A stretch of DNA of 64,000 nt from a virus (Duplodnaviria > Caudoviricetes), in the IMG/VR virus record IMGVR_UViG_3300028888_000054, one strand, 5' to 3'. A model generated the notes under the pieces. That model worked only from the letters and a program-made list of their open reading frames with translations, did no database searches and was not told the DNA's origin. Below are positions 13,287-51,454 of the stretch, piece by piece. The position numbers and the translations under genes were made by a program. Within the stretch, counting starts at the first letter, position 1. Each line of letters starts with the position of its first letter.

Positions 13287-13400
13287 ATAATTAACTTATT
13301 TAAATTGCATAAAAATCATCTTTTTGTCTATTAACAGTTGAGCCATTGTTTGTTCCTAAAGTTGTTAAAACATTATGAGTTCCCTTTTTCATCTTTTCTC

Positions 13401-37406: not shown

Positions 37407-37415
37407 GTAATTAAC

Positions 37416-38390
37416 TTATGAGATTTTTAATAACATTGTGCATATTTTATAAACATCATCTAAAGAAATTCGTTTTCTACCATGATCTCTATAATTAGTA
37501 AAAATCAAATCTCCATAAAAGTATCTGTTTCCATCTACAAAAGCATTAAACTCATTTACTAATTTTATTTGTTGTTCTGGGGTTAAATCCTTTTCGCATT
37601 TTAAAGTAGCAAAAATTCTGTCATTCTTTTGCCCCTTATAAACATATCCTGGTTTATATTCTAGGCCAAAATGTTTGGTTCGAGTATCTAAACATCTAAC
37701 GTAAATATTAGTATTTGCTGGCTCGTCACCAATCACGCGCGAAAATATAGATTTAGTTCTTTTAAAGAAATCAAAAATTTCCCCACCAATCCTATAGCCA
37801 TATTTTCCATTTAAGCTGATTGGTATTTTATTACCGTTTCCCCCATTATTAAAAACAACTATACTGTTATCTTCCTGCTTGCCTTTTTTAAAATGAAAAG
37901 AACAAACATTGTAAGTAGTGTTTTTAAATACTTGATATGTAAAATAGTTTACATAATCCACATGATACTGAGAAAAGAATTTTTCTCTTACTTCTCTTGT
38001 TGCTTCGTCTGTAAAAAAATTAAGTGGGATAATTAAAATTCCTTCTTCACAGCCCATTATGCTTAATATAGAAGCTTTATACAAATCATCGGTTTGATAC
38101 TTATCAAAAATTTCTTTAAATTGATCTGTTTTATTTTTTGCCAAATAAGGTGGATTTGTAATTACAACTTTACCTGTATAATCAATTGGATTTAATAAAC
38201 TATCTCTATACTTTACTCTTGGGTCTTTTACATCTATATCGTAAAGTTCCCAATTTGTGTTTGGGGAGTATTCAAAAAGATCGCAAGCGCCCGCAAAAGG
38301 GTCTACTGCCTCTTGCGGGTAAAAATCTATCCCTTGTAAAATTTCTTTATAGTTTTCTGTAAAATGCTGCGTTTTTTTTAAATCACTCAT
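37416..38390 (-). CDS. gamma-class N6-adenine DNA methyltransferase
   Basis: QHFT, VDPFAG, YDID, ITNPPY, DDLYK. Confidence 0.85.
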   Translation of the reverse strand: MSDLKKTQHFTENYKEILQGIDFYPQEAVDPFAGACDLFEYSPNTNWELYDIDVKDPRVKYRDSLLNPIDYTGKVVITNPPYLAKNKTDQFKEIFDKYQTDDLYKASILSIMGCEEGILIIPLNFFTDEATREVREKFFSQYHVDYVNYFTYQVFKNTTYNVCSFHFKKGKQEDNSIVVFNNGGNGNKIPISLNGKYGYRIGGEIFDFFKRTKSIFSRVIGDEPANTNIYVRCLDTRTKHFGLEYKPGYVYKGQKNDRIFATLKCEKDLTPEQQIKLVNEFNAFVDGNRYFYGDLIFTNYRDHGRKRISLDDVYKICTMLLKIS

Positions 38391-46112: not shown

Positions 46113-46217
46113 AAGCAAATTATATATAAATATATAAAATTTGTCAAGAACAAATTTTGCTTAAATCTATTTTTTTCGCATGTATTCAAGATAAAATTAA
46201 ACGGAGGTTTTAGTTTA

Positions 46218-47061: not shown

Positions 47062-48555
47062 ATGCTTACAAATAATTTAGTTGATAAAGCGCGTTTTGAA
47101 GAGCAGCTTAACGACCGTTGGTCTTGGATCACAGAAGACATCGAAGATGCCGAAACAAGACTTAATACTCAATTGGTTCTTGAAAACTCATATAGATATA
47201 TGATTCAAGAAGGTTCTATTGCACGCAACTGGCTTGAAAATAACATTCTTTCAGAAGAAGTTATCGAAGAAGCGCCACAGATGAGAGGAGCAGTTGGTGA
47301 TTATGTAATCCCTAAAGTAATGTTCCCAATCATCAGACGTGTTATGCCAGAACTTATTGCTAACAAATTGGTTTCAGTTCAGCCAATTCAGCAGCCAACT
47401 GGTGTAATTTACTACATCAATTACGACTACTCAAATGACAAGGGAACTATCAAAGCAGGCAACGAATTCTCTGGTGCACCACAGCAGACAACTCCAGCTT
47501 TCGCTACATGGTACTCTTCAGAAAAAATTGGACCTTTTGTTGCAAAAACAGATAAATCTACTGGTGTAGTTGACTTCGGTGCACAAACTGGTATCACAAA
47601 CTTCTTGGGAACAAACCCAGCTGAATATAAAATTAAACGTTTCGAAGTTTACAACAGAACAACAGGTAAAGCAATCGCTACTGTTTATGGTGGAAGCAAA
47701 GATAACGTAACATTTGACCCTGCAACTGGTGCTATTACAGTAACAGTTCCAGCATCAGCATTCTTCGGCGACGAAGATAATGAATTTGAAGCATTCTTGG
47801 TATACGATCAGGAAGGAACTTCAAAGATTCCAGAGATGGAATTCCACATCGACCACATGAACGTTGAGACAACTGAACGTAAATTGAAGGTTAGATGGAC
47901 TAAAGAAGCTGAACAGGATATGATGGCTTATCACAAGATCGACGTAGAACAGGAGCTTGTAAAAGTTGCTTCTATTCAGACAAACTACGAAGTAGACCGT
48001 GAAGTTATCAGATTCATTGATGATCATATCATCTCTGACCTTTCTCAGATTCACAACTGGACAGACGACGCAGCAACTACAGGTAATAATACACAGGGTA
48101 ACTACCTTGATAGACACCGCTGCTTGGCACAGAAACTTTATGCTGCTTGTACAAAAGTAGCTACATTCAACCACCTTGGACCATGTGATTGGGCAGTTGT
48201 ATCTCCAAAGATTGCAGCAGTTCTTCAGATGCTCCCAGACTGGAAAGCAGGTGAAATCGCTAGTGGTAAATCAACTTACTACAATGCTGGTACACTCGGA
48301 AACGGTTCTTTGGCAATCTACGTTGATCCAAACAGATGCGGTGCTCAAGAAGACGAAATCACTCTTGGATACAAATCTAAGGATTCAACATACGGTGCTG
48401 GTGTAGTTTACTCACCATACGCTAACTGGATGTCAGGAACAGTTGTTAACCCAGACAACTTCAACAACGTAAGAGGATTCTTCAACAGATATGCTATTTC
48501 TATGGCACCTCGTGGAGAATACAACTACGCAAGAGTTAGAATTAACAACTTGTAA
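47062..48555 (+). CDS. major capsid protein (T4 gp23-like)
   Basis: PIIRRVMPELIA..LVSVQP..QPTG, IPEM.F, RKLK..WT.EAEQD..A.H.ID.EQEL, E.DRE, GYK, YSPY, F..RY; strongly biased codons. Confidence 0.95.
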   Translation: MLTNNLVDKARFEEQLNDRWSWITEDIEDAETRLNTQLVLENSYRYMIQEGSIARNWLENNILSEEVIEEAPQMRGAVGDYVIPKVMFPIIRRVMPELIANKLVSVQPIQQPTGVIYYINYDYSNDKGTIKAGNEFSGAPQQTTPAFATWYSSEKIGPFVAKTDKSTGVVDFGAQTGITNFLGTNPAEYKIKRFEVYNRTTGKAIATVYGGSKDNVTFDPATGAITVTVPASAFFGDEDNEFEAFLVYDQEGTSKIPEMEFHIDHMNVETTERKLKVRWTKEAEQDMMAYHKIDVEQELVKVASIQTNYEVDREVIRFIDDHIISDLSQIHNWTDDAATTGNNTQGNYLDRHRCLAQKLYAACTKVATFNHLGPCDWAVVSPKIAAVLQMLPDWKAGEIASGKSTYYNAGTLGNGSLAIYVDPNRCGAQEDEITLGYKSKDSTYGAGVVYSPYANWMSGTVVNPDNFNNVRGFFNRYAISMAPRGEYNYARVRINNL

Positions 48556-48619: not shown

Positions 48620-48649
48620 AAAAAAGGCTACCAATTTGGTAGCCTTTTT
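48620..48649 (-). terminator. flagellin gene terminator
   Basis: AAAAAAGGCTACCAA-T-TTGGTAGCCTTTTT, bidirectional appearance. Confidence 0.8.
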
Positions 48650-48694
48650 GCTTTTCTCCTTTCTATGGCGAGAACCCCTCCGAAGTCGCCGTTT

Positions 48695-49543
48695 CTATTT
48701 TAACAACGCTAATACATTTTGTGATTGAGAATTTGCTTGTGACAACATAGCCACAGATGACTGTGAAAGAATCTGCTGCTTTGTATACTCTACCATTTCA
48801 GTAGCCATATCTGCATCTCTCACTCTTGATTCTGCAGCTTGTGTGTTTTCTGCTGCTATGTTAATACCTTTCTGAGCCATCTCCATTCTGTTCTGATAAG
48901 CGCCAAGATCTGCTCTCTGCTTATTTACATTCTTTAAAGCTTCGTCAAGAGTTGTAATTGTTACATTTGCCTCGTCAGGTGATGAAATAGAAATCTGATT
49001 ATCTTCACCCTGGACACCTTTCAACCCAAGAGCTGAAGCTGTCATTGTTCCAATATAAGCACGAATGTTTTGGTCAACATTTGCACCAACCTGGAATTGC
49101 ATTATACCATCAGACTCTCTTGAAAATCTACCAGTCAAAAGGTTCATTCCGTTAAACTGAGCAGAAGAAGCAATTCTATCTACTTCAGCAACAAGCTGAG
49201 AAACTTCTACCTGAATCTGCATTCTGTCTTCATCTGAGTATACACCATTTGAAGCCTGAACTGCAAGTTCGCGAATTCTCTGAAGAACATCAGTTGTTTC
49301 TGCAAGATAACCTTCTGCTACCTGAACAAAAGAAACTGCATCGCCAATGTTTCTTGAAGCTTGACTAAGACCTCTAATTTGAGATCTCATTTTTTCAGAT
49401 ACAGCTAAGCCAGAAGCATCATCTCCTGCTTTGTTAATTCTTTCACCGCTTGAAAGTTTTGCCATTGAGTTCTGTAAGTTTGCTGCATTAATTCCTTCTT
49501 GGCGACTAGCAAACAAACTTGCCATATTGTTATTTATTACCAT
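48695..49543 (-). CDS. flaB: flagellin, spirochete FlaB-type (282 aa, no D2/D3)
   Basis: [83 protein letters not shown]. Confidence 0.97.
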
Positions 49544-49547
49544 AGAC

Positions 49548-49563
49548 TACCCCTCCTTGGGTA
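49548..49563 (-). promoter_or_regulatory. CsrA-type hairpin with the SD in an AAGGAG hexaloop
   Basis: Minus strand TACCC-AAGGAG-GGGTA-GTCT-ATG. Confidence 0.6.
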
Positions 49564-49569
49564 TAAAAA

Positions 49570-49597
49570 ATATCGACAGATTTCTCTGCCGACTTTA
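49570..49597 (-). promoter_or_regulatory. sigma28 (FliA/SigD)-like promoter overlapping a GAAA-loop hairpin
   Basis: TAAA-N16-GTCGATAT vs consensus TAAA-N15/16-GCCGATA(A/T). Confidence 0.6.
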
Positions 49598-49604
49598 ATT
49601 TAAC

Positions 49605-50141
49605 TTAGATTAAATCTTCTCTTCCAATGAACGTCAAAGCCTTTGCACGGTTCTTGTGAATCTTATCATAATTAGGATATGACAATTTGCTTGTTCCACG
49701 AGTGTGAGAATAAATCTCTGGGAAGAAATAGCATCTTGATCTGATGTAGAAGAAGTTCCACAAATCCAAATCTTTATTTTTTATGGCTCTTCCGTCCTTT
49801 CCTTCCTTGCGGGCGATAGCATCTTTCAATGCCTCTGCAACACCAACGATTGGCACATCGTCATCTTTGTTTGACTTGTAAACAGAGCCGATAAACACTT
49901 CTCCGTCTTCGCCCTTAATCGCTACCAATGTTCCGCGTGGCTTTGTTCTTTCAAGCTGGAGTCTTCCGTTTCCAACTTCCTTTCCAATGAACCCGTCACG
50001 AATTCTCAAAGAAATGAAACCGTTGTTTCCATGCTCCTTTCTAAATTCATCAACGAACTTCTGTGCTTCATCTCGTGCCTTATTACGAGCTTCTCTTTTC
50101 TCTGCTGCTCTCTTCTTAGCAGCTTCTTCAAATTTATTCAT
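49605..50141 (-). CDS. hypothetical basic protein
   Basis: 178-aa ORF with strong SD (AAGGAG) and capsid-like codon bias. Confidence 0.65.
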   Translation of the reverse strand: MNKFEEAAKKRAAEKREARNKARDEAQKFVDEFRKEHGNNGFISLRIRDGFIGKEVGNGRLQLERTKPRGTLVAIKGEDGEVFIGSVYKSNKDDDVPIVGVAEALKDAIARKEGKDGRAIKNKDLDLWNFFYIRSRCYFFPEIYSHTRGTSKLSYPNYDKIHKNRAKALTFIGREDLI

Positions 50142-50155
50142 CTTTTTCTCCTTTC

Positions 50156-51454
50156 TTAAAAATTATAAGACATTATCGCGTTTTTGTCAATCTTACTAAC
50201 AACTTCTAAAAAATCTTCTTCTCGCTTTCGCTCCTCTGCAGACTTTCCAGAATATACTACCCTTGGACACCATTTATACTCACATTTATCAGCTTGCTTA
50301 AAATGGTCAAACTGTTCAATACCATAATTTGCCGCCTTACATAAGTTTTGTAAAGTTAACATAGCTCCAACTGGCGGATTTTTACCATTAAATAAATCCT
50401 CGTAAAACTTTATAACATTTCTTGCACTTTCCCAAAAGTTCCAATCCTTGTGTTTGTGAATAGTTGGTGGCGCATCAAAACCTACAAACTCTTCATAAAA
50501 TAATAAATCAGGGCCTATTATAGAATAGGCTGCTTTATCACCATTTTTATATGTTCCCATACCAAATGTAGAATATCCCTGCTCATGCTCCCAAGGCATA
50601 TCACTCAAAGAATTTATATAAACTTCAAAATCTTCTCTGATTGAAGATCCAGGTTTATAAATTCTTGTTGCAGCAACATTAAAATGATCCTCTAATGTGT
50701 GCTCTGGATTCTCCCAAAGTGTATAAAAATCATTTACAGCTTTATAAATTTTTCTATAAACGGGATAGCCGTTAAAATCATCTCTATTGTATTTATTTTG
50801 ATACAATACAGAAATTGTAATTTCGTCGGGGTCTTCCCCTAAAATCTCAAAATCTTTCCTTAAAACATTTTCCCAGCCATCTTCTGTTGACCAGTATGTT
50901 ATTAGATCTGCAGCAACATTTATTCCTAATGTTTTTGCTAAACTCATACATTTGAAAGCGTTTTCATAATCTGGAATCAGTCTTCCATTTGCTTTTAAAA
51001 TACTTTCATCAAATGTTTGAAAACAAAATATAGCAGTTGTAAAATTATATTTTGCTAAAACTCTAATAAAATCTTCTGTTATTAAAGCTGGGTGAAGTTC
51101 TATAAGCTTTCTTGCTTTAAGAATATAATCAGGCATACTTTTCAAGTATTTTTCAAATTTTTCTGCAGAAAGATAGTTTGGCGTTCCACCACCAAAAGAA
51201 ACGAGTTTTATGTCTTGTTTACTTAAAATACTATCATACCGTTTAAAAAGTTTTGGCATATATTTAAAATAAAAATCTTCAACTTCTTCTTCTGTATGGT
51301 TTTTCTTTGGGCAACCCTTATGACAGCAAAAAAGGCAATTATCATAAGTTTTGCAAAACGGATTATGTAAATAAACAACAACTGGTCTATCATTCTTTTC
51401 CCATAATTGTTTATAACTAAACAAATCTACTATATTATCACTAAACTCTAACAT
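50156..51454 (-). CDS. HemN/HemW-like radical SAM enzyme
   Basis: VYLHNPFCKTYDNCLFC (Cx5Cx2C), SFGGGTP, IELHP, QTFD. Confidence 0.8.
   Translation of the reverse strand: MLEFSDNIVDLFSYKQLWEKNDRPVVVYLHNPFCKTYDNCLFCCHKGCPKKNHTEEEVEDFYFKYMPKLFKRYDSILSKQDIKLVSFGGGTPNYLSAEKFEKYLKSMPDYILKARKLIELHPALITEDFIRVLAKYNFTTAIFCFQTFDESILKANGRLIPDYENAFKCMSLAKTLGINVAADLITYWSTEDGWENVLRKDFEILGEDPDEITISVLYQNKYNRDDFNGYPVYRKIYKAVNDFYTLWENPEHTLEDHFNVAATRIYKPGSSIREDFEVYINSLSDMPWEHEQGYSTFGMGTYKNGDKAAYSIIGPDLLFYEEFVGFDAPPTIHKHKDWNFWESARNVIKFYEDLFNGKNPPVGAMLTLQNLCKAANYGIEQFDHFKQADKCEYKWCPRVVYSGKSAEERKREEDFLEVVSKIDKNAIMSYNF

Follow-up and report, generated by a model that had tools for sequence, protein, structure and literature searches.

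A predicted sigma-28-type promoter within a terminator-like hairpin upstream of a flagellin gene in a T4-like phage

The DNA analyzed here, a stretch of 64,000 nt from a virus genome (hereafter the window), has a G+C content of about 31% and carries nearly all of its genes on the minus strand. One of these (48695..49543, minus strand, ATG at 49543) encodes a FlaB-type flagellin of 282 aa with complete Pfam Flagellin_N and Flagellin_C domains, and is convergent with a major capsid gene of the T4 gp23 type (47062-48555; Pfam Gp23, E = 9e-56); an SbcC-like nuclease, a dUTPase and a radical-SAM gene are its other neighbors. The flagellin shares 71-77% identity with FlaB of Treponema bryantii and of many gut and rumen Treponema MAGs, and homologs at 71-84% identity were found in IMG/VR phage contigs of 189-386 kb. 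In the phylogenetic tree, 10 of the 11 phage flagellins formed a separate clade (support 91/89), apart from three groups of host paralogs. Judging by its comparison with the related locus L113 (dN/dS = 0.10, dS = 0.44), the gene is under purifying selection. We infer that the window derives from a T4-like phage which infects gut or rumen Treponema and encodes a flagellin of its own. The INPHARED search returned no close relative of this phage, and no CsrA gene was found in the phage records searched. In a 386-kb phage contig (L003:4001-4845), the flagellin frame stops after 43 codons while tblastn aligns the full length; this span of 845 nt points to a frameshift or an assembly error.

Upstream of the flagellin gene, on the same strand, there is an ORF of 178 aa (49605..50141) with no family match and no assigned function, whose TAA stop (49607-49605) overlaps an AAGTTAA motif (49600..49606, minus strand). 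It is preceded by a perfect consensus sigma-70 promoter, TTGACA-17-TATAAT (50162..50190, minus strand, 12/12 matches), and among the upstream 7-mers of the window TTGACAA shows the strongest enrichment. A preliminary description had placed four overlapping signals in the approximately 60 nt between the two genes: AAGTTAA as a phage late motif, a sigma-28 promoter, a terminator-like hairpin, and a second hairpin presenting the Shine-Dalgarno (SD) sequence. Read on the minus strand, the four were all recovered at these positions, and the functions proposed for them fared differently.

The putative sigma-28 promoter was identified by pattern matching and consists of TAAA (49594..49597, minus strand) as the -35 element, followed after 16 nt by GTCGATAT (49570..49577, minus strand) as the -10 element. 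FliA-dependent promoters are defined by a -35 TAAA and a -10 GCCGATAA with about 15 nt between them; the window has this layout, and its -10 box matches GCCGATAA at 6 of 8 positions with CGATA intact. The single mismatch from the consensus that had been proposed applies to the B. subtilis-type GCCGATAT, and two mismatches are counted relative to GCCGATAA. The pattern TAAA-N15/16-GYCGATAW occurs once on both strands of the 64-kb window, versus 0.09 matches expected, and the single genome-wide match in a complete 301-kb relative (G005, which holds L004) lies 48 nt before its flagellin gene.

Comparison with orthologous phage leaders revealed that the box is kept in 9 of the 14 distinct ones as TAAA/TTAA-N15/16-G(C/T)CGATA(A/T), with wholly different spacers, and that it precedes flagellin in both branches of the phage flagellin clade. 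The close relatives L014/L015/L112 and L113-115 carry the perfect form, TAAA-N16-GCCGATAA. More distant promoters read TAAA-N16-GTCGATAA (L001), TAAA-N15-GCCGATAA (L002), TAAA-N16-GCCGATAA (L004/5) and TTAA-N16-GTCGATAA (L007), and their spacers and leaders are unrelated to one another. The remaining 5 of the 14 leaders have no such box; therefore, this promoter is not obligatory for the clade. In the window, two of the three leader differences from the closest relatives (C to T, and AA to A) fall in the -10 box, so that the promoter of this phage could be decaying or somewhat weakened; a T at either of these positions of the box (2 and 8) is also found in natural host or phage promoters.

The genomes of the likely hosts T. 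bryantii, Treponema sp. JC4 and T. pectinovorum encode FliA, which scored above the cut-off in all three, as well as CsrA and FliW, with fliW and csrA adjacent to each other a few kb from tandem flaB genes. The sigma-28 consensus was found in these hosts before class III flagellar genes, namely a flaB paralog (in T. bryantii, TAAA-N16-GCCGATAT) and flgF/G. Across host flaB promoters, T. denticola included, the -10 box reads GCCGATAT or CCGATAA. The same sigma-28 box and a GGA-loop SD hairpin were observed in host paralog 1. No sigma-28 box was detected within 400 nt of the host flaB paralog closest to the phage gene (72-77% identical). We considered this as evidence against host sigma-28 control and set it aside, given that the gene is the second of a tandem pair behind the sigma-28-driven paralog. 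In T. denticola, flaB2 has a sigma-28 promoter with a mapped start (-35 TTAA, -10 CCGATAA), and the authors mention preliminary data on the binding of FliA to it (PMC9481697). The conserved box, its match to host flaB promoters and the presence of FliA in the likely hosts thus support well, by comparison, the proposed control by host sigma-28, and the viral flagellin gene appears to be switched on by the motility program of the host itself. T4-like phages remodel the host RNA polymerase, which may count against an active sigma-28 holoenzyme in infected cells.

The same bases form a hairpin with a 9-bp stem, GTCGGCAGA-GAAA-TCTGTCGAT (hairpin 1; 49572..49593, minus strand), followed by A and a run of six T (49571-49565). 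Its folding energy of -12.9 kcal/mol (z = -5.8) was equaled by none of 200 shuffled sequences, and it was also flagged, together with its U-run, by the terminator scan. A stable G+C-containing hairpin directly followed by a U-run at the end of a transcription unit is the hallmark of an intrinsic terminator, and hairpin 1 with U6, which begins 11 nt past the stop codon of the 178-aa gene, has the features of one; in L113-115 the element begins 5 nt past the stop of a different gene. L014 and L113-115 carry a G-C version of the stem with an energy of -15.6 kcal/mol, in which the C of GCCGAT pairs with a G of the 5' arm; the T present in the window leaves a G-U pair, which lowers the stability to -12.9 kcal/mol. 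Hairpin 1 comprises the promoter spacer and most of the -10 box, so the spacer and the -10 box would be the two arms of the terminator, and the T6 run (49565..49570, minus strand) would be both its U-tract and the stretch from the -10 box to the predicted start site. The sequences of hairpin 1 and of the SD hairpin are nearly identical among close relatives. The suggestion that a terminator insulates flagellin from read-through is well supported by this comparison and by the perfect sigma-70 promoter upstream, and a predicted terminator and a promoter within the same 30 bases are a neat case of signal compaction.

How these elements are inherited was examined by comparing close relatives that share the 178-aa gene, whose copies in L014/L015 and L112-L115 are 97-98% identical. 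Four arrangements were observed. In the window, the 178-aa gene is followed by AAGTTAA, the hairpin with the sigma-28 box, and flagellin. In L113-115, a gene for a secreted protein of 130 aa stands between AAGTTAA and the cassette, and the hairpin, box and SD hairpin found behind it, before flagellin, are the same as in the window. In L014/L015/L112, an inserted homing endonuclease gene (phrog_655, E = 1e-39; L014:4620-5462), which has an AAGTTAA motif of its own, separates the box from a much-diverged flagellin; this flagellin forms a long branch (dN/dS = 0.27 versus the window) and its divergence is greatest at the 5' end, with both UTRs identical. Finally, L016/L116 contain no flagellin (L016:3790-3860) and keep only the 5' arm of the hairpin, joined to the distal 3' UTR at a junction in which GTCGGCAGAGAAA abuts GGAGAAAA. 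Two imperfect 12-nt direct repeats, TCGGCAGAGAAA (49592-49581, in the loop-side arm of hairpin 1) and TCGCCATAGAAA (48671-48660, in the 3' UTR), flank the segment concerned, and this junction, to judge from its position between them, is a deletion or insertion boundary that marks the ends of the cassette. From the four arrangements it follows that the -10 box, the U-run, the SD hairpin, the ORF and the proximal 3' UTR move as one unit; the hairpin element travels with the flagellin cassette whatever gene is upstream. Present or absent between conserved backbone genes and equipped with its own expression signals, the cassette has the organization of a moron. The small secreted proteins beside it matched no Pfam or PHROG family; thus a link to FlaA was not found.

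The 3' boundary of the cassette was analyzed by alignment and folding. The 3' UTR (48651..48694, minus strand) holds the GGCGA/TCGCC stem (48690-48686 with 48671-48667) and the two GGA motifs (48681-48679 and 48659-48657) to which attention had been drawn. Both are present and the GGAs are perfectly conserved, but the fold of the stem is no better than that of shuffled sequences (z = -0.23) and nothing ties these motifs to CsrA. Synonymous sites differ at 33% between the window and L113, while the leader shows 3 differences in 58 nt (P = 3e-7 against synonymous sites) and the 3' UTR with the terminator 2 differences in 81 nt (P = 5e-12). Versus L014, the ORF is 53-80% identical, and its last 40 nt and the 3' UTR are 100% identical. 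The conservation of the leader and the 3' UTR fits functional constraint, and recombination at the cassette borders could contribute to that of the UTRs as well. A bidirectional terminator common to flagellin and the convergent gp23 capsid gene (48620..48649) was identified by the terminator scan; it is retained in the flagellin-less L016 and so belongs to the phage backbone. As a separate observation, positions 48651-48694 are 100% identical in the window, L113 and L014 despite an ORF dS of 0.44 to 1.25.

The AAGTTAA motif behaved differently from the rest of the region. Across the window it is depleted (19 matches versus 36 expected), about half of its copies are intergenic, and within 60 nt upstream of genes it is approximately 7-fold enriched (5 versus 0.73); at other places in the window it takes an extended form, ATAAGTTAAT, 5-25 nt ahead of a start codon. 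Relatives that have another gene next to the 178-aa gene still carry AAGTTAA behind the latter, and the motif also precedes the endonuclease gene in L014. In T4-type late promoters, TATAAATA occupies the -10 position before late genes; a canonical copy of this box (46125-46132, plus strand) lies about 85 nt before the scaffold-like ORF and gp23 operon, and none was found within 49544-49640. For these reasons the designation of AAGTTAA as a phage late motif did not hold up, and we rejected it as a late promoter for lack of support, its sequence not being TATAAATA. It may be a phage promoter or a gene-boundary signal and, by its distribution among the relatives, is part of the phage backbone, outside the flagellin cassette. 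Two copies of ATAAGTTAAT (37411-37417 and 13291-13297, minus strand) lie 4-5 nt before an ATG that has no SD, and these starts may be leaderless or coupled.

The last element is the SD hairpin, TACCC-AAGGAG-GGGTA (49548..49563, minus strand), a candidate single CsrA site. A GGA in a hairpin loop overlapping the SD is provided here by the AAGGAG hexaloop on a 5-bp stem, a shape that RsmE and CsrA reportedly bind, and the hairpin is identical in L113-115. The SD context, CCAAGGAGG, is identical to that of host paralog 1, and analogous SD-loop hairpins were found in the host paralog-1 leaders and in phage L003, L006, L007 and L011. The proposed ANGGAN-type hexaloop is thus present, but weak by energy: it folds with -6.4 kcal/mol (z = -0.86), 36 of 200 shuffled sequences were as good, and a GGA loop closed by at least 5 pairs precedes 11 of the 88 window genes (12.5%). 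From the shuffles and this frequency, we concluded that the SD hairpin is not distinctive by itself.

CsrA dimers are said to bind two sites normally for tight repression; a further GGA 10-60 nt away, which a dimer could bridge, was looked for. No second GGA lies between the -10 box and the SD in the window, the loop of hairpin 1 being GAAA; the nearby coding region has one at 49495-49493, within flagellin codons. A second GGA site is present in host paralog 1 and in phage L004-L012. The host paralog-1 leader comprises an AGGA-loop hairpin followed by an SD hairpin, UUCC-AAGGA-GGAA; the stems differ between species with the pairing kept, including one compensatory change. Two GGA-loop hairpins were also observed in the leaders of L006, L007 and L011 (z = -4.4, -3.4 and -1.9), and weaker versions of this layout in L004, L008 and L012. 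The leaders without the first GGA hairpin are short and belong to the window, L113-115, L001 and L002; that of the window has a predicted length of about 20 nt, versus 120-190 nt in the hosts. The Rfam search gave no family at the window leader, only sub-threshold terminator look-alikes at 48.5-48.7 kb, and no match for the host or other phage leaders. CsrA-FliW control, which the preliminary description had also assigned to this gene, is supported for the phage flagellin clade as a whole, since several relatives share two GGA hairpins with the host leader and both csrA and fliW are present in the hosts; in the window itself the upstream hairpin is lost, only the SD-loop site is left, and such control may be reduced.

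Taken together, the reading that we favor, and which we regard as reasonably probable, is that these 60 bases serve as a compact region controlling a flagellin cassette of the moron type in a T4-like Treponema phage. Transcripts of the 178-aa gene would start at its perfect sigma-70 promoter and end at hairpin 1 and the U-run. The same DNA would be the host FliA promoter, with TAAA immediately 5' of the stem and a -10 box, GTCGATAT, composed of the stem's 3' arm plus the T that opens the run, and host sigma-28 RNA polymerase would start at about 49561-49564. The predicted leader of about 20 nt would then open, at its extreme 5' end, with the 5-bp hairpin showing the SD CCAAGGAGG in its loop. 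It could be regarded as a shortened form of the host and phage flaB leader, in which a GGA-loop hairpin followed by a GGA-loop SD hairpin gives a CsrA two-site layout. Whether host CsrA still acts on the window copy, probably more weakly, seems to us evenly balanced, because one SD-loop site has been kept and the first hairpin lost, and because of the parallels with CsrA in the hosts and in Borrelia.

Two alternatives concern what is left of the CsrA control. According to the first, which we consider possible though on the doubtful side, the short-leader lineage (the window, L113-115, L001 and L002) has lost the CsrA hairpin of high affinity, so that phage flagellin is made regardless of host feedback and the SD hairpin has no other task than to adjust translation or to shield the mRNA at its 5' end. 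In the phage tree the short leaders group in a single branch, and none of them has the first hairpin; moreover, hairpins located right at the 5' end are known to stabilize mRNAs. This is opposed by the GGA-in-loop geometry of the SD, which has been kept and is perfectly conserved, and by L012, a member of the same branch that still has a weak GGA hairpin. According to the second, the model of the preliminary description in full, the single SD hexaloop would impose tight CsrA-FliW feedback as in the host flaB genes, with GGA motifs of the coding sequence or the 3' UTR possibly contributing. The AAGGAG hexaloop on a G+C-rich 5-bp stem has the shape bound by RsmE and CsrA, its SD context is that of host paralog 1, the leader and 3' UTR are under strong constraint, and the hosts possess CsrA and FliW. 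Even so, we think this model rather unlikely, since the window lacks the upstream GGA hairpin held by the host leader and six phage lineages, the SD hairpin is not statistically distinctive, and the 3' UTR stem is no better than shuffles. In addition, the part of the UTR with the second GGA (GGAGAAAA...) persists in the flagellin-less L016 and may thus serve the phage backbone.

It is improbable, in our view, that the sigma-28 box is an unused relic and that flagellin is transcribed through read-through or by a polymerase under phage direction, one example being an AAGTTAA-associated promoter starting at the base of hairpin 1; the hairpin would then be a 5' stabilizer or attenuator and not a terminator. 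In favor of this, AAGTTAA(T) shows enrichment in the regions upstream of genes and is found 15-25 nt ahead of several start codons, a start 6-7 nt past it would fall on G49593, where the hairpin begins, the box is missing from five phage flagellin leaders, and two of the three window changes strike its -10 element. Against it, the box is perfect in four close relatives, conserved across a clade whose leaders are otherwise unalignable, and the sole such site in a 301-kb genome; AAGTTAA stands at this position also when the next gene is not flagellin, and the T4-type late box TATAAATA, rather than AAGTTAA, lies before the head operon.

The compact control region proposed here resembles several known systems. 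A sigma-28-type promoter of the host kind on a phage flagellin gene is already established for Enterobacter prophages with TldR, temperate phages that encode the flagellin FliC-P and this repressor (bioRxiv 10.1101/2023.11.30.569447; PMC13418256). The FliC-P promoter, like that of the window, conforms to the FliA/sigma-28 motif of its host, and the virus thereby draws on the bacterial program of flagellar transcription to make its own subunit. FliC-P is active in lysogens and is paired with an RNA-guided repressor of host fliC; in contrast, the window phage is T4-like, as judged by gp23, with no TldR evident, its predicted promoter is merged into a terminator-like hairpin, and leader elements of the CsrA type come into play. 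Furthermore, Enterobacter flagella are external and exposed to immunity and to flagellotropic phages, whereas spirochete FlaB builds periplasmic flagella. Lambdoid morons are likewise self-contained units of promoter, gene and terminator, variably present between backbone genes; the classic ones belong to temperate phages and have sigma-70 promoters, unlike this cassette, which is found in a T4-like phage and would use an alternative host sigma factor.

Among the bacterial systems, T. denticola flaB2, together with the csrA/fliW locus, resembles the window in having a sigma-28-type promoter before flaB, and CsrA sites have been reported near the flaB SDs (PMC9481697). The paralog-1 leaders of T. 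bryantii, JC4 and T. pectinovorum have the same box and two GGA-loop hairpins, the upstream one of which is missing from the window, and host flaB promoters are not embedded in a terminator hairpin as the window promoter is. CsrA-FliW control has been described for Bacillus subtilis hag and Borrelia burgdorferi flaB (Yakhnin 2007, Sze 2011, as cited in PMC12327847); both share with the window a GGA site overlapping the SD in a flagellin leader, and they have two CsrA sites with binding shown experimentally, whereas the window has one candidate site deduced from its sequence.

A FliS-FlaB-FliW/CsrA partner switch, in which cytoplasmic flagellin sequesters FliW and frees CsrA, has been demonstrated in the spirochete Borrelia (PMC12327847). 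This switch also favors the first alternative above, the loss of host feedback: if the phage copy escaped repression, it would lower the output of those host flaB genes in which the two sites remain. This raises the speculative and improbable prospect that phage flagellin with a short leader escaped CsrA, kept sigma-28 and soaks up FliW and FliS, the freed CsrA silencing host flaB. If so, flagellin should accumulate in motile infected cells and the wider CsrA regulon should shift, and a structural protein would be a regulatory decoy, instead of or besides a filament subunit.

If the compact control region operates as we propose, a virulent T4-like phage, and not prophages alone, brings a structural gene that it has acquired under the control of an alternative-sigma regulon of the host, and the host flagellar control logic, comprising sigma-28 and, in many relatives, a two-site CsrA leader, has been maintained by selection within a phage clade. 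The contribution of the window is a natural allelic series and the constraint statistics. The series, made up of alleles with two CsrA sites or one site in the leader, of one interrupted by a homing endonuclease and of one cleanly deleted, gives specific and testable predictions on flagellin homeostasis in spirochetes, and genetic tools exist in T. denticola. Two minor observations were made in the course of these comparisons. A 386-kb relative encodes a sigma-70-family protein, L134 (G004:C1:210035-210625), which scored 62 bits against FliA_WhiG, under the family cut-off. At L017-L096, about 125 nt upstream of the start of the closest-paralog flaB (for instance L033:2876-3003), there is a conserved structured leader with no Rfam match; it contains two covarying hairpins, with compensatory changes at 16 of the 19 pairs predicted, and, immediately ahead of the SD CAUGGAGGG, an invariant C-ANGAN-G loop.
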